The notes beneath the pieces were generated by a model. The model saw only the letters and a list, made by a program, of their open reading frames with translations. It made no database searches and was not told the DNA's origin. 64,000 bases of DNA. It comes from Escherichia phage vB_EcoM_G17. The translations under genes were made by a program, and so were the position numbers. Each line of letters opens with the position of its first letter. Position 1 is the first letter of the stretch. The stretch lies in the sequence record MK327931.1; one strand, 5' to 3'. Positions 18,399 through 44,606 of this stretch are shown here, piece after piece.

Positions 18399-18858
18399 TC
18401 AAATAATCCACGCATTTATAGTATACTACTAAATCTAAAAAGAATCGTTGTTTGTATTTGTAATGATGAAGTAGTGCACCATAAAATAACATAGCATTAA
18501 GTACTTTTACATCATGAATACAAGAACCCTGAAAGTACATTTCCTCTGACATGAACACTAAATCATCATACTTAACAAATACTGCTTCTCTATAATTGTC
18601 AATATTAATCTTCAAATCAGACCCAGGGCAATATGAAATGTATCCGGCTTTGTAATGAAAGTCATTGTCATCAAAGTACTCGGCATAGATTTGATTACCT
18701 CTTTCATTAGTAAACGCAAGTCTTCCTTTGGATGAACTAAACTCATCGTATTCGAACATACCACCAAATGGGTCAGGACTTCTGAACTCCTTTGCAATGC
18801 GATAGATATTTTCTGCAAATTCTAAAACACCATCGTAATCATATTCTGTAGTAATCAT
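18364..18858 (-). CDS. hypothetical protein, FamA paralog
   Basis: FamA core EEMYFQGSCIH. Confidence 0.65.
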   Translation of the reverse strand: MITTEYDYDGVLEFAENIYRIAKEFRSPDPFGGMFEYDEFSSSKGRLAFTNERGNQIYAEYFDDNDFHYKAGYISYCPGSDLKINIDNYREAVFVKYDDLVFMSEEMYFQGSCIHDVKVLNAMLFYGALLHHYKYKQRFFLDLVVYYKCVDYLNEKYDNNSVHD

Positions 18859-19331
18859 AAACCATTTTTCTCCAGGTACTCAATAATACAATCGAGATTG
18901 TTCAGGTCCAAGTAGAAATGATCACTATCTGAATTTAGTTCATTTTTAAGGGCAGTGTAAATCACTGAACTGAAAACAATCCTCTCTGGATACACAGTAC
19001 TGTACTGGAAGAACTCTTCTTCAGTGTTAATTTCAGCCGTATCAAATCCTTCATTTATAAGATGATGATTGTAGTATTTGAAATTATCTGAACTTGGGAA
19101 ATGGTATGAAATAAAATCACCACTTGGTACTTCATCAAGCACTCTAATACTACAAGTTGATTCATCTGAACTATAGAGTAACCCATCCATAAAGGAAAGG
19201 TATCCATTTCGTTTTTTGACTGTATGTTTGCCTACGGAAAAATCTTCAGTAACATTTGTAAGGAATTTATAAACCCTGATAATGTCTTTTGCTATTTTTT
19301 GTGCATTGCTAAATGATAGGTCTTTGGACAT
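18855..19331 (-). CDS. hypothetical protein, FamA paralog
   Basis: FamA core EEEFFQYSTVY. Confidence 0.7.
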   Translation of the reverse strand: MSKDLSFSNAQKIAKDIIRVYKFLTNVTEDFSVGKHTVKKRNGYLSFMDGLLYSSDESTCSIRVLDEVPSGDFISYHFPSSDNFKYYNHHLINEGFDTAEINTEEEFFQYSTVYPERIVFSSVIYTALKNELNSDSDHFYLDLNNLDCIIEYLEKNGL

Positions 19332-19364
19332 TGTGATATAACCCTTTACAATTAATATAAAGAG

Positions 19365-19394
19365 ATTATATCACAAAGAATCGGAGGGTGTCAA
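19365..19394 (-). promoter_or_regulatory. internal sigma70-like promoter
   Basis: -35 TTGACA about 19389-19394, -10 TATAAT about 19365-19370; AT-rich inverted repeat TGTGATATAA/TTATATCACA between -10 and start of 18855..19331. Confidence 0.4.
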
Positions 19395-19975
19395 GATGGG
19401 TTGCGAAGTTCTACCATTTCTTTCCAAACTAATTGGTAATCTTCTAAGTCCAGATAGAAGTCTTCATTCCAGTGCTCATGAAAGTACTTATACATGAATA
19501 GAACTCCTAAATCGTATGCAGGAAACAATAATGATAGTTGAAAGTAGTATTCCTGATTTAAAACTATATCAATAAACTCTAATGTACGTATGCCACCTTT
19601 CGATGAACGTATCTCAATGTGTGAGGTATCCTTCATACTGTAACACATGAAACCACCTCTAAATTCTGGATCATATTCACATTCGAACTGCTCACTGTTG
19701 TTATAGAAATCTCTCCCACTTTCTTGATCTTTCGGTCTACGTACTGATACATGAATATTTTTATCACGGTACATTGAACGATTTAGTATTTTCAAACATT
19801 TGAACTTATCTTCTTTAATGAACTTGATAATATCAATTATATCTTGTGCTGTACTGATAGCTGATTCGAATGTATCCAACTTAAGATGATTATATTGGGT
19901 TCCAGAGTTCATTTTTTTATCTAACATATAAACCTCATAATTCATACATTTTTGATTTGAACTGCATATGACCAC
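19391..19975 (-). CDS. hypothetical protein, FamA paralog
   Basis: FamA core QEYYFQLSLLF. Confidence 0.65.
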   Translation of the reverse strand: MVICSSNQKCMNYEVYMLDKKMNSGTQYNHLKLDTFESAISTAQDIIDIIKFIKEDKFKCLKILNRSMYRDKNIHVSVRRPKDQESGRDFYNNSEQFECEYDPEFRGGFMCYSMKDTSHIEIRSSKGGIRTLEFIDIVLNQEYYFQLSLLFPAYDLGVLFMYKYFHEHWNEDFYLDLEDYQLVWKEMVELRNPS

Positions 19976-20276
19976 CTATTTCACATGGATAACAATTCAT
20001 AATTTTGTTCAATAGAATCTGGTATTTTTTAATAACTTCTATATCAATTTTTATATTACTATTAAAAACTAATGATTCTTGAAATAATTCCCCCTCGTCA
20101 AGTGAAGTAAAATCATTTATCTTCAAGGGTATATTGTTGCATCGCAAGGAGAATGTATTTTCATCACGAATTAAAGTATAGAAATCATTATGTTTTTTAT
20201 TATAATCAAATTTAACAAGTAGTAGTTTAATATGAGTAGCGTACATTACTTTAACTAATTCAGATTCACGTCGCAT
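19935..20276 (-). CDS. hypothetical protein, FamA paralog
   Basis: FamA core EGELFQESLVF. Confidence 0.6.
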   Translation of the reverse strand: MRRESELVKVMYATHIKLLLVKFDYNKKHNDFYTLIRDENTFSLRCNNIPLKINDFTSLDEGELFQESLVFNSNIKIDIEVIKKYQILLNKIMNCYPCEIGGHMQFKSKMYEL

Positions 20277-20698
20277 ACAATACCTCTCTTATGATGCAAA
20301 CATTCTTGCATAATGTGTTGTATTTTTCGTAACAGAAACACATCCAGTTCATTAAAAACAGTACTGTACTGGAACATCTCTTCTTCCCCGTACTCAGTTA
20401 AATCATCAATTTCATCTCTAGAAACAGCTACAATATTAAAACCACGTGTACTACAATAACCCTTAGTAAGATAATATATGTACTTGTACTCTCCGTTGAT
20501 ATCTAAGAGATCTTGTGTGATACAGAAGCTTTTGGGTGACAGTTTATCATCAGGAACCATATGCCTTGCTTGTACATAGCAACGGATACCATCACCTATA
20601 CTATATGTAATAACTTCAAATTCAATCTTCATAGGTGAATATAATCCTTTTATATTGCTCAGGTGCAGTACTGAAACGTTTGATTGGATAATTATCAA
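20255..20698 (-). CDS. hypothetical protein, FamA paralog
   Basis: FamA core EEEMFQYSTVF. Confidence 0.65.
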   Translation of the reverse strand: MIIIQSNVSVLHLSNIKGLYSPMKIEFEVITYSIGDGIRCYVQARHMVPDDKLSPKSFCITQDLLDINGEYKYIYYLTKGYCSTRGFNIVAVSRDEIDDLTEYGEEEMFQYSTVFNELDVFLLRKIQHIMQECLHHKRGIVCDVNLN

Positions 20699-20984
20699 AG
20701 ATTCTTTTCATTTCTTTCTGGATTAAACATAAGAAATCAAAGTTACAATCGTACTTATTATCCCATACTAAACTTTCTTGGAATAACTCATCCTCTTGCA
20801 TTAGTGTAGTGTCAATTACATCTTCACGGACATAGCTATATACTTCATAGCTCTTGAAGCCATCTTCTGATAATTCTAATTCATATGCAGCCATATCAAA
20901 CATATCATCATGGTTTGTCTTCAAAGATATTAAACAAGTAACTAATTTTTTAGTTGTATAGTATGTAATACTTAATGTGTTCAT
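20622..20984 (-). CDS. hypothetical protein, FamA paralog
   Basis: FamA core EDELFQESLVW; start approximate. Confidence 0.6.
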   Translation of the reverse strand: MNTLSITYYTTKKLVTCLISLKTNHDDMFDMAAYELELSEDGFKSYEVYSYVREDVIDTTLMQEDELFQESLVWDNKYDCNFDFLCLIQKEMKRIFDNYPIKRFSTAPEQYKRIIFTYED

Positions 20985-20989
20985 TTGTT

Positions 20990-21592
20990 TTATACCTCAG
21001 TATATAGCTTACAATAGCTTTCATCGAAATTACAAACACTTCTCAAGTACTGACACAGGTCATTGAAAATATTTACATTTGATATATATACATTATCAAA
21101 TTCTGTTCGTTGAAAGAATGTATACATAGAATTTGTAATATATCGCATTGCATCTTCACGTCCCATAGTTATATCATTTGTGAACATTGCATCTTCATCA
21201 GTACTGATGTGTTCTATTTTAAATGATTTCATAAATGGAATACTCTTTCCTAGGGCATAACCATCACCATATGATGCTTCTACTGCACCTTTAGAATAAA
21301 GGAATTGATATAAGTCCGAATCACGATTATAAAAAGTACGACATACGGAGGAACATAATTTATTATCTATATGAAATAAAAATCTTTTAGCATTTTTGTC
21401 TAATACTATTCGCAATGCATCACTCTCTAGAAATATATCACCATCAAGCATAAATGAGAACTGTACTAATGCTTTTTCTAAATCCGCTCGTTTGTGATAA
21501 ATCATTTCCTGCATATATATAATATCATTTGCTAATTTCTTAAAAAACAAATGCACATCTGCACTACAACATTTATTTGCATTTATTGACAT
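20990..21592 (-). CDS. hypothetical protein, divergent FamA-like
   Basis: ORF track; degenerate core EDAMFTNDIT. Confidence 0.5.
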   Translation of the reverse strand: MSINANKCCSADVHLFFKKLANDIIYMQEMIYHKRADLEKALVQFSFMLDGDIFLESDALRIVLDKNAKRFLFHIDNKLCSSVCRTFYNRDSDLYQFLYSKGAVEASYGDGYALGKSIPFMKSFKIEHISTDEDAMFTNDITMGREDAMRYITNSMYTFFQRTEFDNVYISNVNIFNDLCQYLRSVCNFDESYCKLYTEV

Positions 21593-22143
21593 AATAGTTC
21601 CTTATACATATGATGTACTTTACAAATCTCATTATAGTATTTCATATCAATGTCATTTGTATTAAAAACGGAAACAGACAATACTGCTAACTTATCAATT
21701 AAGTAATTATTATCGGCGTACTGTTTTAACTTATTGAACATATAGATGCATTTTATACTTAATTCATCATGCAACACACTGTTCTGAAAAATATTCTCTT
21801 CAGTATTAGGAGATAAGTAATCTTCAATTATATACGATAAACTACTATCGCAATCTTTATAGATTGAAATTGATGGATGTAATGTGTCATACATTACACT
21901 AAACAGATCACCGTCATATGTGGATATTAAACTATTATTGGAAACAGTAGGATGATAATATTTCAGTACTGAAAACTTTGAACAATCAGTGCAGTAAAAA
22001 TGATCCATCCCTCGACGACTTTCGTATGAGAATAGTTTACTTGTATATTCAATCCCTTTGGTGCGACGGATTGTTTCATGCATTTCTGCACATTGCATTA
22101 AAATTACCATACGTTCAAACGCAAGATCTAAATCATCGTACAT
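21583..22143 (-). CDS. hypothetical protein, FamA paralog
   Basis: FamA core EENIFQNSVLH. Confidence 0.65.
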   Translation of the reverse strand: MYDDLDLAFERMVILMQCAEMHETIRRTKGIEYTSKLFSYESRRGMDHFYCTDCSKFSVLKYYHPTVSNNSLISTYDGDLFSVMYDTLHPSISIYKDCDSSLSYIIEDYLSPNTEENIFQNSVLHDELSIKCIYMFNKLKQYADNNYLIDKLAVLSVSVFNTNDIDMKYYNEICKVHHMYKELLCQ

Positions 22144-22324
22144 AACGGATATCCTTCTTCAACGAATTAATATATTCCAAAATAACTTGTTCCTGATATT
22201 GGGTTCCCAAGTACATCAGTACTTTCAACTCTTTGAATTCAGTACTATATGAGTCTGTTTGCATCATTCTAGTAGAATATATATTGAATAGTTTAGCAAT
22301 ATCATCTTGGTCTATTATTTTCAT
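22133..22324 (-). CDS. hypothetical small protein, FamB paralog
   Basis: FamB core YLGTQYQEQV; isolated FamB pair embedded in FamA block. Confidence 0.6.
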   Translation of the reverse strand: MKIIDQDDIAKLFNIYSTRMMQTDSYSTEFKELKVLMYLGTQYQEQVILEYINSLKKDIRYVR

Positions 22325-22520
22325 TAACCCTCTTCTGTATTAGTTCCTGTAAGTGCTGAATATAACCCTTCATTGCAACATCCTGTTTGTTAGAGCCAAC
22401 GAAGAACAAGAGCTTAAAGTCATGGTAATCCATTTTTGGTTTAGTAGTGAACCATATGTCCCACACTGCACTCACAGTTCTCATGTATTCAATTCGATTA
22501 AATGTTTTTGAATACTTCAT
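22302..22520 (-). CDS. hypothetical small protein, FamB paralog
   Basis: FamB variant core FVGSNKQDVA. Confidence 0.55.
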   Translation of the reverse strand: MKYSKTFNRIEYMRTVSAVWDIWFTTKPKMDYHDFKLLFFVGSNKQDVAMKGYIQHLQELIQKRVNENNRPR

Positions 22521-23034
22521 CGATGTTCATTGCCAATAAGTTAATATACAAATTACTGTTAAATGCTATCTGCAATTCCATATAGAACTGAATGATTGCA
22601 TAGTCAGGGTCAGTACACGATAGTTGAAAACACTGTTCGTCGAATGCATTGTAATTGTACTTAGGGATGTGAATTTCACGCTTCAAATCAGGTTGCCCCC
22701 ACTTCATCGCGTACACACCAATGTTATTGTTCTTTTTCCTTTTCTTAAATGTTAATTGTTGAATATTTCCTGCGTTATCCAGGAAAATAGAATTATTCGA
22801 CACAGGTGCACCAATAGAAAACAATGATGTATCAATTACGTGTTTCTCACGTACATCACACTTCTGAAATGCACCTGTACCCTGTAATACACGATGAAAA
22901 TTGTACTTCTCATTAACAACAGTACTAGGATCAATTAAACCAGTACTGCATTTTTTGAGTACTGGTACGATGATACGAATCTTTTTTGATAAATCTTGTA
23001 ATGCATCAAAGTCATTGATGTTAACTTTCATCAC
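22498..23034 (-). CDS. hypothetical protein, FamA paralog
   Basis: FamA core DEQCFQLSCTD. Confidence 0.6.
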   Translation of the reverse strand: MMKVNINDFDALQDLSKKIRIIVPVLKKCSTGLIDPSTVVNEKYNFHRVLQGTGAFQKCDVREKHVIDTSLFSIGAPVSNNSIFLDNAGNIQQLTFKKRKKNNNIGVYAMKWGQPDLKREIHIPKYNYNAFDEQCFQLSCTDPDYAIIQFYMELQIAFNSNLYINLLAMNIDEVFKNI

Positions 23035-23480
23035 TCAAATGTGGCCTCTTCAGTAGTAACAAAATTGATTAGTGTATCCAGTTCAGCAGTGTCAAGATAA
23101 AATACATCCAGTACTGATTTCTGATATATTACACTGAATGTGCATAGATTGTCAAGCGTTCCTTGTTCATAAACAGTACTACCCTGGAAGTACCCTTCTT
23201 CAGTACTCAGGGATAAAATGTCTGAAATTTTAAAAGATTCTTCAGTCGCATGTCTTTCTATATTAACTAAATGTCCGTTTCGGTTCAATGAAATATAATC
23301 GTATGCTAACTCAATTAGACTATAATTATCCGCATTAGTGTCAAATAAAGCGACAATTTTTCGTCTCAATCTCTCATCGTGATCATGGTTTTCATCAGCT
23401 AAGTATTCAGGATTTTCTTTGAAGAACTGAACAACTTTTAGAATATCATTTGCTTTCTTGATTGCACTTTCGTAACTCAT
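23031..23480 (-). CDS. hypothetical protein, FamA paralog
   Basis: FamA core EEGYFQGSTVY. Confidence 0.7.
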   Translation of the reverse strand: MSYESAIKKANDILKVVQFFKENPEYLADENHDHDERLRRKIVALFDTNADNYSLIELAYDYISLNRNGHLVNIERHATEESFKISDILSLSTEEGYFQGSTVYEQGTLDNLCTFSVIYQKSVLDVFYLDTAELDTLINFVTTEEATFE

Positions 23481-23785
23481 AATAATTCAACCACTCCATC
23501 TCTAAAGTACATATAACTACCACCATTGGATACCTTGAATTCTATTGTCCCCAATAATATATTATATTTTTTTATTTCACATGTAGTACTGGTAGTGTAA
23601 GGCTCACCATCTCCTAAGTACATTGACATATGACATAGAACTTTTCTACCTGCATATTTCTCTTCAAACGATTGTTCAAAACTATGCATAATTTGATTTA
23701 AAGCTGAAATGTAATTAATAAAGTCAGGTATTTCTGTCAATGAATTATAAACCGTACAAAGTGAATCAAATTCATTTTTAGTCAT
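23477..23785 (-). CDS. hypothetical protein
   Basis: ORF track; ATGA coupling; no family core. Confidence 0.55.
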   Translation of the reverse strand: MTKNEFDSLCTVYNSLTEIPDFINYISALNQIMHSFEQSFEEKYAGRKVLCHMSMYLGDGEPYTTSTTCEIKKYNILLGTIEFKVSNGGSYMYFRDGVVELL

Positions 23786-24099
23786 TATATTTCTATCTCA
23801 ATGTAATCCTGTGTGATTAAGTAATCCCAATGATACTTCACCTGCTTTTGTAATTCAATTAACGTAAAGAAGTTGATCGATTTATCCCATACGAGCGATT
23901 CCTGGAAAATAAATGATTCATGTTCATCGTAATAATCACACTCTAAAAAATCAGGTATATATTCACTATCGTGAATGTATTCAACAAACGAACTAGCTTG
24001 GCATTTCTTTACTACTAGTAATAATGAATTATCATGATCAAACAGATACAATAAACTAATTTCACCAGGGACGTACTGAACACTGAATAAGTTTTTCAT
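23785..24099 (-). CDS. hypothetical protein, FamA paralog
   Basis: FamA core ESFIFQESLVW. Confidence 0.65.
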   Translation of the reverse strand: MKNLFSVQYVPGEISLLYLFDHDNSLLLVVKKCQASSFVEYIHDSEYIPDFLECDYYDEHESFIFQESLVWDKSINFFTLIELQKQVKYHWDYLITQDYIEIEI

Positions 24100-24548
24100 T
24101 CTATACCTTCTGGATCTTTACGAAGTTCTTCGAAATCCAAATAAAATCGAGGACAGTTAACACTCTTTAAGTACCACATAATAACTAATGCTTCAAGTAC
24201 TTCATCATCGTAAACAGTACTGTTTTGGAAGTAATACTCTTCACTATCCCACGGACCATCCAGTACTTCATAATTCAAAATTAATGGTTTTTTGCGATTA
24301 ATAAAACGAATGCTACCATTTTCAACATAACTAATAAATTCTGCATCTCTATTGTATTCAGAAAACGATATAGGACTATTGGAATTCAACCCAAGAATAA
24401 CCCTTACACCCACGGAGTTATTATACATTTCATCTTTGTAGTAGTTGCCGTTCTCGGCTTTGTACACTTCTTTGAACTTTCCTGCCTTTATATCGTCAAA
24501 GTATCCATGTAGTTCTTTTGCTTTTTCAAGAGCACTTTGTAATGACAT
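24096..24548 (-). CDS. hypothetical protein, FamA paralog (MSLQSAL subfamily)
   Basis: Core SEEYYFQNSTVY; N-term MSLQSALEKAK; C-term FYLDF. Confidence 0.7.
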   Translation of the reverse strand: MSLQSALEKAKELHGYFDDIKAGKFKEVYKAENGNYYKDEMYNNSVGVRVILGLNSNSPISFSEYNRDAEFISYVENGSIRFINRKKPLILNYEVLDGPWDSEEYYFQNSTVYDDEVLEALVIMWYLKSVNCPRFYLDFEELRKDPEGIE

Positions 24549-25014
24549 TACCTTCTCCTACAGTATTCTCTACATATTCATAATCAAAATAGAAACTACT
24601 GGAGTCAATACTTTTGAAATACCACATAATTACAATAACATCTAATTCTTCTTCATTGTACAACGTACTATTCTGGAAGTAATATTCTTCACTATCCCAC
24701 GGTCCTTCCAGTACTGAATAAGGAATGATAGTGTCATCAGCATCACTATCTGTGTTGTAGATGGTAATATCTTCATTACGGCAATAACTAATGTACTGAT
24801 TGTACATATGATATTCACAGTTATCACTGTCACCAGTATCAGTGTGCAGTACTAATGTTTCTGCACATATCTCGGACTCGTCATAATCGTCACGGTCTTT
24901 TACAAAAAATTCAGTATCAGATGTTTTATATACACCTGGTACTGAACCTTCCTGTACCATAATCATGTACTCATGAATCTTCTTTGCTTCTTTCAATGCA
25001 CTTTGTAATGACAT
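24526..25014 (-). CDS. hypothetical protein, FamA paralog (MSLQSAL subfamily)
   Basis: Core SEEYYFQNSTLY; N-term MSLQSALKEAK. Confidence 0.7.
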   Translation of the reverse strand: MSLQSALKEAKKIHEYMIMVQEGSVPGVYKTSDTEFFVKDRDDYDESEICAETLVLHTDTGDSDNCEYHMYNQYISYCRNEDITIYNTDSDADDTIIPYSVLEGPWDSEEYYFQNSTLYNEEELDVIVIMWYFKSIDSSSFYFDYEYVENTVGEGNVITKCS

Positions 25015-25457
25015 TACAAATCCCCTGTACTTAAATATTCACATGCTCCCCAGTCAAGAAAGAATGGTTCAAAATTCAATTCCTTAAAGTACCACAACAC
25101 AACCAAGGAATCAAGAATTTCTTGGTTAAAAATGAGACTCTGTTGGAAGTAATACTCTTCAGTACCCCACGGGCCATCAAGTACCCCGAAGTCAACAGGT
25201 GTATTTGTTGTGTCAAAAGTAATCTTAGTACCTGGAATATATACAAAAAAATTAGTATATTGACTACATGAAGAGTACTGTATAGTATTGTCTTTATCCT
25301 GTCCCATAAGTAAAATATCATCAGAGTATGTCTTTATACCTGATAGATAATACTCATCACCAAATGCACTTACTTTATCACCATAGAACCCACTTTTTAT
25401 GTTATCGTGGAAGTGATGTATTCTGTGTGCTAGTTCAAGTGCACTTGCTAAACTCAT
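25014..25457 (-). CDS. hypothetical protein, FamA paralog (MSLQSAL subfamily)
   Basis: Core TEEYYFQQSLIF; N-term MSLASALELAH. Confidence 0.7.
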   Translation of the reverse strand: MSLASALELAHRIHHFHDNIKSGFYGDKVSAFGDEYYLSGIKTYSDDILLMGQDKDNTIQYSSCSQYTNFFVYIPGTKITFDTTNTPVDFGVLDGPWGTEEYYFQQSLIFNQEILDSLVVLWYFKELNFEPFFLDWGACEYLSTGDL

Positions 25458-25924
25458 ATATCCTCTTTAATAACTCGTAGTAGATCCAAGTCCAAATAGA
25501 AGCTAGGACAATCTGTATTATTAAAGTACCACAGAATGACAAGCTTGTCAAGTACATCTTCCTCGTAGATAGTATTCTGCTGGAAGTAGTACTCTTCACT
25601 TCCCCAGTCATTATCCAGTACTGAATACGGAAGATGTTTCTCTGCTGCACCAGATATAATGTCAGAATCTTGTATTAAAATATCAGCATCACGACAGAAG
25701 TACATGTAATTATCTTCCAAATTAACATCACACCCATTGAGTGTTGTTTCAGAAGAATCTAAGTTTTCTTCATACATGTGAATGTACTCACTACTGTCAT
25801 CGTATCTCATTCGACAATATGATTTACCTTCCTTGAATAGATATCCATTAAGACAATTTGCTACAATTTCTTTGCTGCATAAATCAATTAACTTCGCAAT
25901 CTCTAATGCTCTTTCTAAACTCAT
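25454..25924 (-). CDS. hypothetical protein, FamA paralog (MSLQSAL subfamily)
   Basis: Core SEEYYFQQNTIY; N-term MSLERALEIAK. Confidence 0.7.
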   Translation of the reverse strand: MSLERALEIAKLIDLCSKEIVANCLNGYLFKEGKSYCRMRYDDSSEYIHMYEENLDSSETTLNGCDVNLEDNYMYFCRDADILIQDSDIISGAAEKHLPYSVLDNDWGSEEYYFQQNTIYEEDVLDKLVILWYFNNTDCPSFYLDLDLLRVIKEDI

Positions 25925-25925
25925 T

Positions 25926-26417
25926 TCAACCCCTGTTAATACCGTTATCTACAGTTTTCTTTACGTATTTGTAATCGAAATAGAAGTTCCCAGAACCAAT
26001 ACTTTTAAAGTACCACATAATTATAATAACATCAAGTACTTCATTATCATATACAGTACTTTGTTGGAAGTAATACTCTTCACTATCCCACGGACCTTCC
26101 AGTACTTCACTCGGAATTATAATGTCATTGGAATCGCTGTCAGTACTGTTGATGGTATCTGTATCATTAATATAGACCATGTACTCATTATGCATATTAA
26201 TGAAGCATTCATAATCATTAGGGTCGGTATCTAGTATGCACGTTTCTGTATCCAGTACGCACGTTTCTGTATCTGAGCAGTCATTATAAAGGAGGTTATC
26301 CGGTACATAATATTGAGTACTTGTGTCTTTGAAAACACCGTAAACTGAACCTTCTTTTGCCATATTCATGTACTCATGAATCTTCTTTGCTTTTTCCAAT
26401 GAACTCTGTAATGTCAT
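25926..26417 (-). CDS. hypothetical protein, FamA paralog (MSLQSAL subfamily)
   Basis: Core SEEYYFQQSTVY; N-term MTLQSSLEKAK. Confidence 0.7.
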   Translation of the reverse strand: MTLQSSLEKAKKIHEYMNMAKEGSVYGVFKDTSTQYYVPDNLLYNDCSDTETCVLDTETCILDTDPNDYECFINMHNEYMVYINDTDTINSTDSDSNDIIIPSEVLEGPWDSEEYYFQQSTVYDNEVLDVIIIMWYFKSIGSGNFYFDYKYVKKTVDNGINRG

Positions 26418-26426
26418 TTTATAATC

Positions 26427-26786
26427 TCATATATTGAAATAATAATTATTCGTTCTTGATGGGGATGGATTAAATACGTTTTCTTTTTCAAATCTCTTCA
26501 TTTCATTTTGCAAAGAAACCATTTCTTCAAATGTACAGGAGTACTTATTCTTATCAAACACTAATGCAGCCTGAAATAGTTCCCCATCGTCCAGTACTGT
26601 ATAATCTATAAGACTCTCAGATTCATAGTCATAGTCGTCATGTGATACATGAATAAATTTAAAACAAGAATCTTTGTAATGCATATATAAACTCAACTCA
26701 TGTTCCGAGTCGCCCTTAATAAGATTACAGCACAAGTCCCATCCTTTAGGTAACTTATAATAGTACATAGAATAATCATATGTCAT
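26427..26786 (-). CDS. hypothetical protein, FamA paralog
   Basis: FamA core GELFQAALVF. Confidence 0.65.
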   Translation of the reverse strand: MTYDYSMYYYKLPKGWDLCCNLIKGDSEHELSLYMHYKDSCFKFIHVSHDDYDYESESLIDYTVLDDGELFQAALVFDKNKYSCTFEEMVSLQNEMKRFEKENVFNPSPSRTNNYYFNI

Positions 26787-27139
26787 TCTTGAATTCCTAA
26801 ATTGAATTTGTATTCTTGATTAATACTTGCATTGGGTTTATGCAAAGCAGCATACTCTTTCATTTCATTTTGTATTGCAATAACTTCTTCAAATGTACAC
26901 AAGTACTTCTTATCAAATACTAATGATTCTTGGAATAGTTCTGCGGTATCCATTAATGTATAGTCCGGCATATCTTGGTGTGGATACTGTAATGAACTGT
27001 AATCAATGAATGTAAATTTACCCTGAGTGTAATGAATATACTCATTTGCACTGTGCATTAAATCACCTTTGTTTAAATTACAAAAGTACTGATAACTGTG
27101 CTTGAAAGTATGTACTGATATTAAAAAATCAAATTCCAT
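26783..27139 (-). CDS. hypothetical protein, FamA paralog
   Basis: FamA core AELFQESLVF; N-terminus MEFDFLISVH. Confidence 0.65.
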   Translation of the reverse strand: MEFDFLISVHTFKHSYQYFCNLNKGDLMHSANEYIHYTQGKFTFIDYSSLQYPHQDMPDYTLMDTAELFQESLVFDKKYLCTFEEVIAIQNEMKEYAALHKPNASINQEYKFNLGIQE

Positions 27140-27510
27140 CAGTACTCAACCTCTACATAAATAGATTCAGGAAACTTAGTCATATAATCTTCTGGATAGT
27201 TCTGCATTACTTTGATCATTTCTGCCTGTGTAGCACGGACGTATTCAATTGGTGCTCCTGGTAAATTCCAGACAGTACTTTCCTGAAAGAATTCCTCTTC
27301 TGACAGTACTGTCAGATTTACAAAATCATTACGGTAATTTTTTGAATCATCATATGTGAAGATTTTAAAAGACCCATTTTCATATAGTACAAGAACAAAA
27401 TGGGAGAATTTTTGTAATGCACCACCAAGGCTTTCCACGACCGCATGATTCAGTGTACAGATGACCTCTTTTTTCCTCATACCGAATTGAATTCTAATTT
27501 CTTTTTTCAT
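27139..27510 (-). CDS. hypothetical protein, FamA paralog
   Basis: FamA core EEEFFQESTVW. Confidence 0.65.
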   Translation of the reverse strand: MKKEIRIQFGMRKKEVICTLNHAVVESLGGALQKFSHFVLVLYENGSFKIFTYDDSKNYRNDFVNLTVLSEEEFFQESTVWNLPGAPIEYVRATQAEMIKVMQNYPEDYMTKFPESIYVEVEY

Positions 27511-27582
27511 AAAATCTCCTTCAGATTAGTACTGAATTTGTACAGAATATTAGAACTGTATACAGCCTCTGTATCTGTATCC

Positions 27583-27669
27583 ATAATCAAATCACCTTTG
27601 TTTAAATTACAAAAGTACTGATAACTGTGCTTAAAAGAATGTACTGATATTAAAAAATCAAATTCCATC
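27583..27669 (-). pseudogene. 5-prime gene fragment duplicated from 26783..27139
   Basis: About 87 bp nearly identical to 27056-27141 (start region of 26783..27139), encodes MEFDFLISVHSFKHSYQYFCNLNKGD then diverges. Confidence 0.5.
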
Positions 27670-28045
27670 ACACTTCCCCTAGATTGAAATGATTACAAAA
27701 ATCATCTTCACCAGTACTGCACCAGATATCTATACATTCCCTGTGAATACATTTAATTCTACGCTGTAATTCAATCATCTCTTCTAATGTACAGATGTAC
27801 TTCTTATCAAATACTAATGCCGCCTGAAACAGTGCAGCATCATCAAGTACTGTATAGTCCAACATCTCGGTTGCTTTACCCCTAAACCCAGTACTAAAAT
27901 CCATCAAATAAAAGTCAGCATTCCAGTACTTTAAAATCTTGTCCCTAGCGTAGTTTAAATCACCCTTGTATAAGTTAGAGTGCGTAACTAACTCACCAGT
28001 GTACATCCATGTCCTTGCACAAAATTCATTATATTTTATTTCCAT
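27668..28045 (-). CDS. hypothetical protein, FamA paralog
   Basis: FamA core AALFQAALVF; ORF-track N-terminal extension through GC-rich non-coding stretch removed (start at MEIKYNEF). Confidence 0.55.
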   Translation of the reverse strand: MEIKYNEFCARTWMYTGELVTHSNLYKGDLNYARDKILKYWNADFYLMDFSTGFRGKATEMLDYTVLDDAALFQAALVFDKKYICTLEEMIELQRRIKCIHRECIDIWCSTGEDDFCNHFNLGEV

Positions 28046-28243
28046 CTTAATCTCTACTATAATTAATAAGGTAAACTCCAATATAAGGAGAACGTTCGGC
28101 GGCGGGGTATTTTTTGTTTCAAGAAACATGAACTGTACTCTGAAAAACACAATATAAAACTTTATATTAAACATATACCTTAGCATGTTTTTCAGCGGAA
28201 ATTTTTTTGACCCCCCCCTGCGGCCTGTCAAAATGAAACGTCT

Positions 28244-28468
28244 CTATTTATTCAGCCTAGAAACCTTGATTTCTTCAATCCTTTTCATTGCACAAAGCCT
28301 TCGACTCGTCCTCTCGTATATATTCAATACTCGCTGTAATGCATTATCTGTATTATCTGCAACTGCAATCTGAACCAAATATGTATCCTTCAAAATAGAA
28401 TCCATCATGAATTCAAAACCTTTCACACTAAAGCAATATGCCACTTCCGGCTCTTCAAACGTAATCAT
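28244..28468 (-). CDS. hypothetical protein (non-family)
   Basis: ORF track. Confidence 0.5.
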   Translation of the reverse strand: MITFEEPEVAYCFSVKGFEFMMDSILKDTYLVQIAVADNTDNALQRVLNIYERTSRRLCAMKRIEEIKVSRLNK

Positions 28469-28685
28469 AATTCCAATCCCCTATTCCCTCTAACCTTCTA
28501 AGATATCTTGCGTAAATTATTTCGAAATATCTGTGCAACGAAATTACGGATTGCTCATAATCATCATTCCTGTACATTGTGCATGTCAGAAAATCATTTA
28601 ACCCAAAATCTAAACTGCACTTGAACTTCTCCTTTGCAATATCACTATTACTTGCACTTTTCATAATAAACCCTTTGTACCGCAT
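28455..28685 (-). CDS. hypothetical protein (non-family)
   Basis: ORF track. Confidence 0.5.
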   Translation of the reverse strand: MRYKGFIMKSASNSDIAKEKFKCSLDFGLNDFLTCTMYRNDDYEQSVISLHRYFEIIYARYLRRLEGIGDWNYDYV

Positions 28686-28846
28686 TGGTGTACTGTGAAC
28701 TCAGCACCACTAATAGGTAATCTATATTGTAAGCACGATTTCCTCGTTGACTAGCACGGCTGGAATAAAGAATATTATCCACATATGTATTGAACTGATC
28801 TTCAAATAACTCTTTCATCAGCATTATACCATCACATAATCATACA

Positions 28847-29470
28847 TCATACATTAACAACTTTATCGATGTAATCTTCTAACATATCAATATATCTGGT
28901 ATTGGTTCTAACTAAAAGGTATGCAAATCCAGAAAACTCCTGTGTATAATGCTTTACAGCGTACATACAACGAAGCTTATCATTGTCATACATTGTACTG
29001 TACTGAAACAAACTCTCGTCTGATAGCTCTAATAACGCTTGGGCTTCACTTCTCGTGAACTTCATAGGGTCATGTACTGCATCACAAAAACAAACCTGTG
29101 TCTCGCTATTGAAACCCTGTGATAGATATATACCTTCACACTCTGAACGCACCGATACTGCATTATAACTATGTGTTGCCCCCATCATATCTGAACTCAA
29201 AACTAAAATCAACCCATTTTTATTTTTAATCAACAAATCTGACTTAAGGGATTTGATCTCCGTATGGGAAATATCACCAAATCTTCCTGGGACTTCAAAC
29301 TTATCAACGTTGTATACAATCTTTTGTACTTGCTCTTTTAAACGCTTAATTGCACTTCTGTCTTTTTCTAATGTATCTAATAAACTCATTGAACTCATTG
29401 TACTTTCCTTACATATTTGTACCGAACAAAACGGAACTTTGAATGCCATTAATCGACACTTCATGTACAT
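28847..29470 (-). CDS. hypothetical protein, FamA paralog
   Basis: FamA core DESLFQYSTMY. Confidence 0.65.
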   Translation of the reverse strand: MYMKCRLMAFKVPFCSVQICKESTMSSMSLLDTLEKDRSAIKRLKEQVQKIVYNVDKFEVPGRFGDISHTEIKSLKSDLLIKNKNGLILVLSSDMMGATHSYNAVSVRSECEGIYLSQGFNSETQVCFCDAVHDPMKFTRSEAQALLELSDESLFQYSTMYDNDKLRCMYAVKHYTQEFSGFAYLLVRTNTRYIDMLEDYIDKVVNV

Positions 29471-29753
29471 ATATATTTTGTCTGAACAAAGGAACTAATT
29501 GAACTAAACTCGTTTGCATAATAATATGCATATGTACATTGTCATATGCCGTTTCGTATTGGAATCGTGCAGCTTCATCTTCTATGAAATTCGGAACTTG
29601 GACTGGATTCTCAAAATTTGTCCTTGTACTGAACTGTACATCATTGTCCTGTACCTTAATACCATATGAATTATCATTGTTATCAACTACATCAAATTCA
29701 ATTAAACTACCATCTTTACTGACGTTTACTATATAAACCGAAAATCGACTCAT
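29409..29753 (-). CDS. hypothetical protein, FamA paralog
   Basis: FamA core EAARFQYETAY; start approximate. Confidence 0.55.
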   Translation of the reverse strand: MSRFSVYIVNVSKDGSLIEFDVVDNNDNSYGIKVQDNDVQFSTRTNFENPVQVPNFIEDEAARFQYETAYDNVHMHIIMQTSLVQLVPLFRQNIYVHEVSINGIQSSVLFGTNM

Positions 29754-30265
29754 AAACCTATTTCCTCTAAATCTTTGACAAATGTATCATAATCCGATAA
29801 TGACAAAAATATGTCTGTACTGATGTTTTGACGTAATGTATTAAACAAATTATGTACCTGTAATAAATCAGGTGCATAAATCAGGGATTGCTGGAAATAC
29901 GATTCTTCTGTATCTAATATATCCCTGCACTCAATTTCACGAACTCGTTGGTATATTGAATTTAATAATACATTTTCATCTTTGAGCATTGGAAGGTATC
30001 GGATGTACATGTGCTCCATCAACTCATCCTGGATTGAACCCCTGAACTGCAACACGTATTCAAAACACATCACTACATCTTGTAGGTAATTGGCACTGTA
30101 ATTATTGCTGTAAACAATCTTATGACTTCTGAACTCATCATCATTTCTGAACCAATTGTCACCTACTTTGGTGTACTTATGACTAAGCTTCCCATCCTCC
30201 AACGCTCGAATGAACTTCATAATGTTAATTGCAAAATCATATGAATGATGCTTGTGTTGATGCAT
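29750..30265 (-). CDS. hypothetical protein, FamA paralog
   Basis: FamA core EESYFQQSLIY. Confidence 0.65.
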   Translation of the reverse strand: MHQHKHHSYDFAINIMKFIRALEDGKLSHKYTKVGDNWFRNDDEFRSHKIVYSNNYSANYLQDVVMCFEYVLQFRGSIQDELMEHMYIRYLPMLKDENVLLNSIYQRVREIECRDILDTEESYFQQSLIYAPDLLQVHNLFNTLRQNISTDIFLSLSDYDTFVKDLEEIGL

Positions 30266-30273
30266 TTTTTACC

Positions 30274-30468
30274 TCAATTCTGTCCGAAAAAATAACCAAA
30301 ATGTTTAAAGCAAGAAAGCATTACTATGTTCATCACTCTATCATCAAATTCATCTTGTGTTTCTGCACATAATGTTTCACAGATATTCAAATGTAATAAT
30401 TCAAGCTGGAAACTGTCGGTGAACCAATCAAACTTACGGTATTTTTGTTTAACATCAACTGTAAGCAT
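30274..30468 (-). CDS. hypothetical small protein
   Basis: ORF track; 64 aa. Confidence 0.45.
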   Translation of the reverse strand: MLTVDVKQKYRKFDWFTDSFQLELLHLNICETLCAETQDEFDDRVMNIVMLSCFKHFGYFFGQN

Positions 30469-30469
30469 A

Positions 30470-31093
30470 CTATATATCCAACCCTTTTACAACATCTACG
30501 AAATGTTCAAACACTTCTTTTGAAAAATAACCACCTTCACAAAAAAGCATACTAAACGGTGGCAGCATGTCCGATAACTCTTTAGCTAAATTGATTTCTG
30601 CTCTTAACTCTTGAACATCAATGATATCATGTACTAAAGATAATTGAAACATGAATGCATCTACATCTTCATTCATTTCTGAATTGTAATATAACTCTTC
30701 AGGGAATTTGTCGGTTTCGTAATAATAAAAAACTTTATTGTTGAACACACCACTAATAGGAACATCATTTTCATCTTTCTTTGAAATGTTTGTTTCCCAT
30801 GACTCTATATTATTAGGAACAAAAAAATCATAGGCTGATTTTGAACCCTGTACTGAATCCAACTTTATTCCATAATATTCCGTATCCATGTATTTCTGCT
30901 GTAATGTAATACCACGTGTACTGACATTCACTTGGAATATATCATCTTTATCTGGAACACTAAATGGAATACATAACACTGAATTCTCAGGGTATTTGGC
31001 AATGAATGCATCCAGCACTTTATTAAGCACCGGAATGGCAATTTTACTGTACTGCATCAAATCATACATTTTAATTCTGGTCATATCATTCAC
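30470..31093 (-). CDS. hypothetical protein, FamA paralog
   Basis: FamA core DAFMFQLSLVH. Confidence 0.65.
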   Translation of the reverse strand: MNDMTRIKMYDLMQYSKIAIPVLNKVLDAFIAKYPENSVLCIPFSVPDKDDIFQVNVSTRGITLQQKYMDTEYYGIKLDSVQGSKSAYDFFVPNNIESWETNISKKDENDVPISGVFNNKVFYYYETDKFPEELYYNSEMNEDVDAFMFQLSLVHDIIDVQELRAEINLAKELSDMLPPFSMLFCEGGYFSKEVFEHFVDVVKGLDI

Positions 31094-44164: not shown

Positions 44165-44183
44165 GATAAAACTCCTTAATTTA

Positions 44184-44246
44184 GGAGGGAGAACCATTTC
44201 CCCCTCTCTATGTAAAACATTATACTTGATTCTAAGTACTATGCAA
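44184..44246 (-). promoter_or_regulatory. sigma70-like promoter + leader hairpin cassette (PeSL-like)
   Basis: -35 TTGCAT 44241-44246, 16-bp spacer, -10 TATAAT 44219-44224, GC hairpin about 44184-44208. Confidence 0.6.
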
Positions 44247-44253
44247 GTACTTT

Positions 44254-44586
44254 TTACATTTTAATACCTGGATTCAGGTAGCGGTGAGATCCATATTCTG
44301 GATCGGTTTCGGTCCAGTACTGTAAATCGATAGTACCTTTCGCGTTAATCTTGTCTACCAGCTTATTCATCTTAGTGTATACTACGTCAGCATCGATGCG
44401 TTTAAAGCCAGTAGCTTTAGTGAAGTAGTAGTGATTTGCTTCACTATCATTAAGGATATACCGAGCACCGTTTGCAGTCTGTGCGATAATGATTGAGTAT
44501 TCTACTTCCCGATCCAGACCGTCGATGAATACAGATGAAACATTGGTACGGATGAAAGCTTTAACGATAGCGATTGAAGTACTCAT
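44254..44586 (-). CDS. hypothetical protein
   Basis: ORF track; AGGAGA SD. Confidence 0.65.
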   Translation of the reverse strand: MSTSIAIVKAFIRTNVSSVFIDGLDREVEYSIIIAQTANGARYILNDSEANHYYFTKATGFKRIDADVVYTKMNKLVDKINAKGTIDLQYWTETDPEYGSHRYLNPGIKM

Positions 44587-44606
44587 TTTGAATCTCCTAA
44601 CTTTGT

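Follow-up and report, generated by a model that had tools for sequence, protein, structure and literature searches.

An 82-nt direct repeat in a small-gene array of Asteriusvirus phages as the probable scar of an ectopic insertion

In the genome of a jumbo coliphage, the first 82 nt of a small gene, FamA-2, are present twice in direct orientation, and this repeat is most probably a target duplication left by the ectopic insertion of a 447-nt segment carrying the tail of one gene and the whole of another. The preliminary description of this DNA had proposed a recombination scar, with the start of a FamA gene duplicated as a fragment, and in this respect it was borne out. The window, i.e. the whole stretch of DNA analysed, comprises 64,000 nt of Escherichia phage vB_EcoM_G17 (MK327931.1).

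The FamA array and the 82-nt repeat

The FamA region matched 36 phage records, which are jumbo coliphages or Salmonella phages of about 310-390 kb; the retrieved records with a genus assignment (121Q, PBECO4, phAPEC6, slurp01, BF17 and others) belong to Asteriusvirus. The window is that of an Asteriusvirus jumbo coliphage of the 121Q/PBECO4 group, and over positions 26783-28045 it is 99.8% identical to BF17. Nearly all the open reading frames (ORFs) of at least 90 aa in the 64-kb window are small genes on the minus strand, as are all the genes around the scar, which are given here in the direction of transcription, followed by the two copies of the repeat:

28045..27668, minus strand: FamA-1, 125 aa, PHROG 15629; the upstream neighbour, directly abutting FamA-2 in phages with an empty site
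27668..27507, minus strand: chimeric ORF, 53 aa, between FamA-1 and the 123-aa gene; ATG at 27668, stop at 27507, the stop overlapping the start of the 123-aa gene (ATGA)
27510..27139, minus strand: the 123-aa gene, imported, PHROG 13866
27139..26783, minus strand: FamA-2, intact, 118 aa, PHROG 15629
26786..26427, minus strand: FamA-3, 119 aa, PHROG 15629
downstream of FamA-3 in the direction of transcription: five paralogues of 147-163 aa
27060..27141, minus strand: repeat copy A, TG plus ATG plus the first 26 codons of intact FamA-2 (gene 26783..27139)
27589..27670, minus strand: repeat copy B, the duplicated FamA-2 start in its original upstream context (the end of FamA-1), opening the chimeric ORF

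Copies A and B are identical at 80 of 82 positions (97.6%, ungapped, offset 529), and the edges of the repeat are sharp, identity collapsing right outside both ends. When up to three mismatches were allowed, the 82-mer was found twice in the 64-kb window, against 0.00 occurrences expected from 100 dinucleotide-preserving shuffles. The near-identical pair originally reported, 27056-27141 and 27583-27669, was essentially right, if a few bases too generous at the inner end, and its identity on pairwise alignment lies above the limit of about 80% below which the repeat was to have been given up. Nor is the fragment the true N-terminus of gene 27668..28045, which has its own start (MEIKYNEF...), kept in all relatives. 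Copy B with its upstream flank corresponds to the single-copy state of PBECO4 and E9.1.

FamA stands for PHROG 15629, a family of small Asteriusvirus proteins, the profile of which has 121 positions and a core of the form DYT.(L/M)D..ELFQ.(S/A)LVFDKKY.CT.EE...Q. The genes 26783..27139, 27668..28045 and 26427..26786 match it over their full length (E from 1e-56 to 1e-60), and no matches to Pfam, NCBIfam or PADLOC were found for FamA-1, FamA-2, FamA-3 or the 123-aa gene. In GenBank, the phAPEC6 orthologue of 27668..28045 (gp447c; L004 1972-2349) bears the name 'amidohydrolase 3', a label that found no support in Pfam, NCBIfam or PHROGs. The arrays and the present rearrangement are not described in the searchable literature on phAPEC6, fEgEco12 and CBB.

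Some further features of the array should be mentioned. Over window positions 18855-31093 and beyond, PHROGs 15629, 13866, 9317, 12674, 30243, 28680 and others cross-match one another and have in common the motif (D/E)x(L/Y)FQ(E/Q)S(L/T)(V/I)(F/Y/W)(D/N), which suggests that much of this part of the window may represent a single, very divergent superfamily of small paralogues. Upstream of FamA-1, the non-coding stretch 28103-28225 is 90-97% conserved with phage A4 (tblastx), whereas the flanking genes are far more diverged; it contains C8 and G-rich tracts and a GTTTC..GAAAC palindrome, has no Rfam match and an ordinary folding energy, and may be a regulatory region of the FamA array. A search of Rfam over 24-31 kb returned nothing relevant, and for the conserved intergenic region 28040-28250 the predicted folding was not better than that of shuffled sequence (z = -0.77). 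Finally, gene 25926..26417 contains a 21-nt tandem duplication (26224-26265, 86% identical) that encodes the repeated peptide DTETCVL/DTETCIL.

Insert, joints and donor locus

The sequence between the two copies of the repeat, together with its joints and the related native locus, comprises the following features:

27142..27588, minus strand: ectopic insert, 447 nt, made up of the 3' tail of an A4_364-like gene (about 26-27 codons) and the complete 123-aa gene
27589..27593, minus strand: junction J1, 5-nt microhomology GATTT between FamA-2 codons 26-27 and the A4_364-like gene (three-way alignment)
27135..27141, minus strand: junction J2, 7-nt microhomology TGATGGA between the end of the donor 123-aa gene and the start of recipient FamA-2
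27507..27593, minus strand: A4_364-derived tail, with a 63-bp in-frame deletion relative to 121Q and A4 (joint between 27551 and 27552)
27516..27521, minus strand: Shine-Dalgarno sequence AAGGAG, read from the sequence, 5 nt upstream of the ATG of the 123-aa gene and belonging to the imported tail
20622..21592, minus strand: native locus in the window, 20622..20984 corresponding to A4_365 and 20990..21592 to A4_364 (tblastn/tblastx synteny, BLASTP)

Phage A4 has its orthologue of the 123-aa gene (A4_365, with 93.5% of residues identical) outside the FamA array, where it follows the 192/198-aa gene A4_364. The preliminary description had the reading frame of the fragment diverging into unrelated sequence; the frame does leave FamA, but what follows is the 3' end of an A4_364-like gene, the C-terminus of A4_364 (...FQQDLIMDVDSAATYSSNVLCKEFQNSKILELLYIADCNILYKFCTHLKEIL) being the very part that had seemed unrelated, and A4_364 and A4_365 share the same ATGA overlap. 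The whole 123-aa gene 27139..27510, which had not been linked to the repeat, arrived with this tail. The insert is collinear with positions 44175-44598 of the A4 record and with four further assemblies, L026, L027, L028 (GCA_012813795.2) and L029, which were retrieved from contigs encoding the 122/123-aa protein and have the same native order of genes of 182, 198, 122/123, 112 and 178 aa; the native donor arrangement is thus present in five assemblies. Their orthologues of the 123-aa gene are 93-99% identical, and the native copy in L029 agrees with that of the window at 367 of 372 nt. Searches of IMG/VR and JGI metagenomes with A4_364 returned only 121Q itself or nothing, and in the phage collection (tblastn) a full-length copy of A4_364 was found in A4 only. 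L028 corresponds to contig AATHYQ020000001.1, complete at 357,761 bp, of Asteriusvirus size and with an A4-type native locus; it is part of an assembly labelled Escherichia coli, and seems to be a phage genome that was submitted along with a bacterial one.

The window and A4 are collinear by tblastx, the block A4_364-368 corresponding to window positions 21592-18855, and 27129-27556 is the only match out of order (81-97% aa identity, except for one out-of-frame HSP of 54%). At the native locus of the window, the products are only distantly related to those of A4: 20990..21592 (200 aa) is 24% identical to A4_364 over the full length, tail included (E=8e-9), 20622..20984 (120 aa) is 27% identical to A4_365, and 19935..20276 is 41% identical to A4_366. 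The donor was then an A4-type allele of a locus about 6-6.5 kb downstream, at which the window itself carries a very divergent allele (24-27%). Consequently, the event was not confined to the array, as had been supposed, the donor being a divergent allele of a locus about 6.5 kb away.

It was also considered that the fragment might be an internally deleted FamA paralogue, on the basis of the similarity of its C-terminus (YKFSTNLKEIL) to FamA YKFNLGIQE. This was rejected, as A4_364 has the same tail natively (86-88% nt identity).

At J1, the parental sequences are ...AAAGGTGATTT followed by AATG in FamA-2, and ...CAGGATTT followed by GATT in the A4_364-like gene. At J2, they are ...GAGTAC TGATGGA TTTAG in the donor and ...GAAGTG TGATGGA ATTTG in the recipient, where TGATGGA is the stop/start overlap typical of the array. 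These alignments identify the parents as a PBECO4/E9.1-like recipient and an A4/L026-L029-like donor that share few bases at each joint; base-by-base alignment of the donor-side joints covered the window and 121Q. Outside the overlaps of 5-7 nt, identity collapses both between FamA-2 and the A4_364-like gene and between the end of FamA-1 and the end of the 123-aa gene. Microhomologies of 5 and 7 nt, without a transposase or inverted repeats, point to microhomology-mediated illegitimate recombination. Unequal homologous crossover is not the source of the scar, because neither joint shows extended homology, i.e. the tens of bases of high identity across the crossover that such an exchange would leave. 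Of the two processes named in the preliminary description, illegitimate or homologous recombination, only the former fits the joints.

Short direct repeats on both sides of an insert do look like the footprint of a transposon, but it is scarcely credible that the repeat is the target duplication of a transposable element or an artefact of assembly. The same structure occurs in 11 independently assembled phage genomes and, because 10 of these were sequenced independently of the window, it is no assembly artefact. The 447-nt insert encodes the gene tail and the PHROG 13866 protein only, with no Pfam, NCBIfam or PADLOC matches; it contains no ORF for a transposase, an integrase or a homing endonuclease, and no inverted repeats were found at its ends. 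Target duplications of transposons are far shorter, and 82 nt greatly exceeds them.

The 123-aa gene matches PHROG 13866 over its full length (E=2e-41, profile positions 1-112 of 115) and is undamaged in all the filled genomes examined, where its pN/pS is 0.25-0.5. Its Shine-Dalgarno sequence AAGGAG is identical in A4, 121Q and L026-L029, and the import of this ribosome-binding site would account for the stretch of upstream gene that a viable insertion contains. Nucleotide divergence from each of the known donors is 12-14% for the tail, compared with 1.3-5.5% for the adjacent 123-aa gene. About nine of the differences are packed into some 20 nt beside J1 (GATACAGATACAGAGG(C/T)TGTA versus GATGTGGATTCAGCAGCTACA), far more densely than elsewhere in the insert; either the actual donor may be missing from the genomes sampled, or mutation or slippage may later have altered the joint.

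In the chimeric ORF, codons 1-27 of FamA-2 continue in frame into the final 26 codons of the A4_364-like gene, giving MEFDFLISVHSFKHSYQYFCNLNKGDL followed by IMDTDTEAVYSSNILYKFSTNLKEIL, the latter being the part after the FamA-2 head. Of its first 27 residues, 26 are those of FamA-2 (S11 versus T11). The chimeric ORF matches PHROG 15629 at positions 1-39 only (E=1.3e-9) and not over the full length, and has no residues in the conserved core columns, so that all the nearly invariant FamA positions are missing. In 121Q, the ORF is 74 aa long, retaining 21 additional codons (VLCKEFQNSKMLELLCIADCN); these correspond to the 63-bp deletion of the window-type lineage, which is flanked by AAT(G/A)TTCTGT repeats.

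Lacking the FamA core, the chimeric ORF is probably a by-product of the insertion. Judging from the FamA-2 initiation context and the ATGA overlap, it may nevertheless be translated and couple translation into the 123-aa gene. That it is a new functional small gene held by selection seems rather unlikely to us. Such a role would agree with the observations that each of the nine filled genomes translated has the ORF uninterrupted and in frame (53 or 74 aa), that the deletion which shortened it is itself in frame, that it keeps the native start context of FamA-2 and the ATGA overlap with the downstream gene, and that it is annotated as a CDS in 121Q, BF17, phAPEC6 and others. However, every nearly invariant position of the FamA core is missing, one lineage has lost 21 of the 74 codons, the N-terminal part is whichever FamA-2 allele recombines in, and an in-frame fusion has a prior chance of one in three; moreover, conservation across the genomes is not independent evidence, because all the copies have a single origin. 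The pN/pS values (0.4-0.5 for the tail, 0.25-0.5 for the 123-aa gene) come from too few sites in the tail, which is almost invariant among the filled genomes.

Empty and filled sites, and the order of events

A filled site with the same structure as in the window is present in BF17, EC22.5-2, CRJP21, phAPEC6, SHEFM2K, ECO103 4-12-1, slurp01, Turkey3, Sharanji and 121Q, i.e. in 11 phages, the window included, from several countries. The event, which had been called recent, is therefore not a recent one private to this phage, since the junctions are identical in all of them, and in the 123-aa gene the cassettes of the 121Q type and of the window type have diverged by 3.8%. The edges of the repeat are the same in the nine filled genomes in which copy B was covered (the comparison leaves out Sharanji, where copy B lies beyond the end of the record, and ECO103 4-12-1), which suggests a single origin of the filled sites.

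The site is empty in about 20 of the 36 matching records: E9.1, JP4, SP27, ELP-22, vB_Ec-M-J, fEgEco12, TH47, ph0011, UE-S1 and PBECO4, and further four Salmonella SD phages, Ecwhy_1, WPEC3/5, UB, CMSTMSU and EC.P1. In these phages nothing separates FamA-1 from FamA-2, and the locus falls short of the filled one by exactly 529 bp. As verified in E9.1, PBECO4, TH47, ph0011, UE-S1, CMSTMSU and WPEC3, the empty-site sequence is made up of the upstream flank of copy B, one repeat and the sequence downstream of copy A. The fragment is probably not what remains of an extra copy of FamA; a complete ancestral copy is present there in none of the relatives.

Presence of the insert does not track the relatedness of the flanks. 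E9.1, which is empty, has flanks 99.7/99.5% identical to those of the window, whereas Turkey3 has an insert 100% identical to that of the window between flanks of only 86/85.5% identity. This argues that the cassette has been moved or lost by homologous recombination, either via the FamA flanks or between the 82-nt repeats.

Copy B is of the PBECO4 type in the window and of the TH47 type in Turkey3, and in 121Q and CRJP21 it has a patch of 11 substitutions that resembles natural FamA-2 alleles, e.g. those of L022 and UE-S1. Dating of the event from the identity between copies A and B, which ranges from 70/85 to 81/85 across the filled phages, was therefore dropped: because copy B exchanges with FamA-2 alleles, and carries different ones in different phages, this identity is no clock, and the recency that had been read from it falls with it. 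The patch that sets copy B of 121Q and CRJP21 apart from the others is located at codons 11-17 (27095-27115 in FamA-2, 27624-27644 in copy B; H-S/T-F/V-K-H/N/G-...), which are hypervariable among UE-S1, JNE01, L020 and L022.

Two other rearrangements were observed in the same array. A Logan contig (SRR27732228; L021 3962-4330) contains a FamA-1::FamA-2 hybrid gene, about 100% identical to TH47 FamA-1 over its initial ~240 nt, beyond which it agrees with TH47 FamA-2 at 90-97%. The exchange point is within the conserved, ~90% identical LFQESLVFDKKY core, and the hybrid represents an independent, unequal homologous crossover. In UE-S1 (L016 301-1029), FamA-1 and FamA-2 form one read-through fusion of 242 aa (...NLGERVMEFDFL...), because the TGA/ATG overlap is altered; the gene is annotated, and translates, in this way, and the fusion could be real or due to a sequencing error.

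The sequence of events that we infer would have started from an ancestral Asteriusvirus recipient in which FamA-1 was followed directly by FamA-2, the state kept in PBECO4, E9.1 and about 18 others. Probably during a mixed infection, 447 nt would have been copied from an A4-type allele, starting near codon 150 in the 198-aa gene and ending with the stop of the 122/123-aa gene, and joined to FamA-2 at two staggered points, the upstream one after codon 27 (GATTT) and the downstream one at the FamA-2 start (TGATGGA). It is because the recipient joints are staggered, re-entry lying 82 nt upstream of exit, that the first 82 nt of FamA-2 would now be present twice. Most economically, this would have happened while the DNA was replicating, by template switching or join-copy illegitimate recombination, or else through two microhomology crossovers in succession. 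In this connection, a RecA-like recombination protein and an SSB are reported for phAPEC6 (PMC7247149). After the event, the 63-bp in-frame deletion would have shortened the tail in the window-type lineage. The gain is a second, very divergent member of PHROG 13866 with its own ribosome-binding site, while the 53-aa in-frame chimera, equipped with the translation start of FamA-2, would be a by-product that at most aids translational coupling. The 82-nt repeats and the homologous FamA flanks would then allow precise loss of the cassette, or its transfer between phage backgrounds. No intermediate of the insertion was seen among the genomes compared.

An alternative course in two steps would have FamA-2 duplicated in tandem first, and the extra copy then mostly replaced or deleted by the A4-type segment, leaving 27 codons. 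Tandem paralogues and unequal crossovers do occur in the array (the L021 hybrid), the copy number of FamA ranges from 1 to 3, and the upstream edge of the repeat is a natural gene boundary. Two full-length copies of FamA-2 are, however, present in none of the 36 phage records or the metagenomic contigs, and the same two microhomology joints would be needed in addition to the duplication, so that this course is less parsimonious, and we regard it as unlikely.

Even less can be said for the filled state being ancestral, with the empty sites and the A4 arrangement derived from it by deletion and translocation. Repeats of 82 nt would permit a precise deletion, and the flanks of E9.1 are closer to the window than those of several filled-site phages. 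Yet the chimera joins parts of two full-length families: the tail is integral to the 198/200-aa family (full-length alignment with 20990..21592) and the head is integral to FamA, and therefore the chimera must derive from both. In addition, the A4 block retains the gene order of the native locus of the window. Secondary loss in some of the empty-site phages is plausible and would not make the filled state ancestral, which we consider very improbable. Insertion into an empty site, with duplication of the target, is the reading that we retain.

Comparison with known systems

In tailed phages, mosaic joints are ascribed to illegitimate recombination in the model of Hendrix and Hatfull. The scar resembles such joints in that a joint lies at or near a gene boundary with few bases of homology, the same module is found in differing neighbourhoods, and relatives are polymorphic for its presence. 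It differs from them in that one joint is inside a gene, that an 82-nt duplication and an in-frame chimeric ORF were left behind, and that, unusually, sequences exist for the donor context, the empty site and the product alike.

The insert is also similar to a moron, as a single accessory gene lies between genes that are adjacent in about 20 relatives. Unlike a moron, it came from a paralogous locus of a phage and not from outside, and it appears to ride on the transcript of the array with an imported ribosome-binding site. A scan with sigma-70 and terminator consensus sequences, which omit promoters peculiar to this phage group, yielded sites in numbers no higher than in shuffled sequence, and none of them bracket the insert.

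T4-like phages undergo duplications and deletions at short homologies, such as the rII-type rearrangements between short direct repeats. The joints at repeats of 5-10 nt are comparable, and the 63-bp deletion between AAT(G/A)TTCTGT repeats is of the textbook slippage type; the scar, however, imports sequence from a second, non-allelic locus rather than duplicating or deleting locally. Unequal homologous crossover between tandem paralogues takes place in the same array, as in the L021 hybrid, but the joints of the scar lack the extended homology. Insertion by a transposon, a homing endonuclease or an integrase is different again, as the insert has no element-encoded enzyme, and instead of inverted repeats and a short duplication of fixed length there is one of 82 nt.

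A more ambitious interpretation would see in the small-paralogue arrays a dedicated diversification zone, for example an arsenal for counter-defence or host takeover, in which divergent alleles of co-infecting relatives are captured ectopically by microhomology template switching, cassettes spread via paralogue flanks, and chimeric leaders are kept for translational coupling. To us, this seems improbable. The scar reveals neither a new mechanism nor the function of the gene families. As regards annotation, 121Q gp366 and its 53-aa counterparts are chimeric remnants and not members of a small-protein family.

The scar is ordinary phage mosaicism of a known kind, unusually well documented, with the moron-like gain of one accessory gene. 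Its interest lies in the fact that the recipient, the donor (in five assemblies) and the product of an illegitimate recombination in a jumbo phage are all available at base resolution. They illustrate how genomes of about 350 kb can gain an accessory gene, a divergent allele being captured into an array of paralogues and then reshuffled by homologous recombination.
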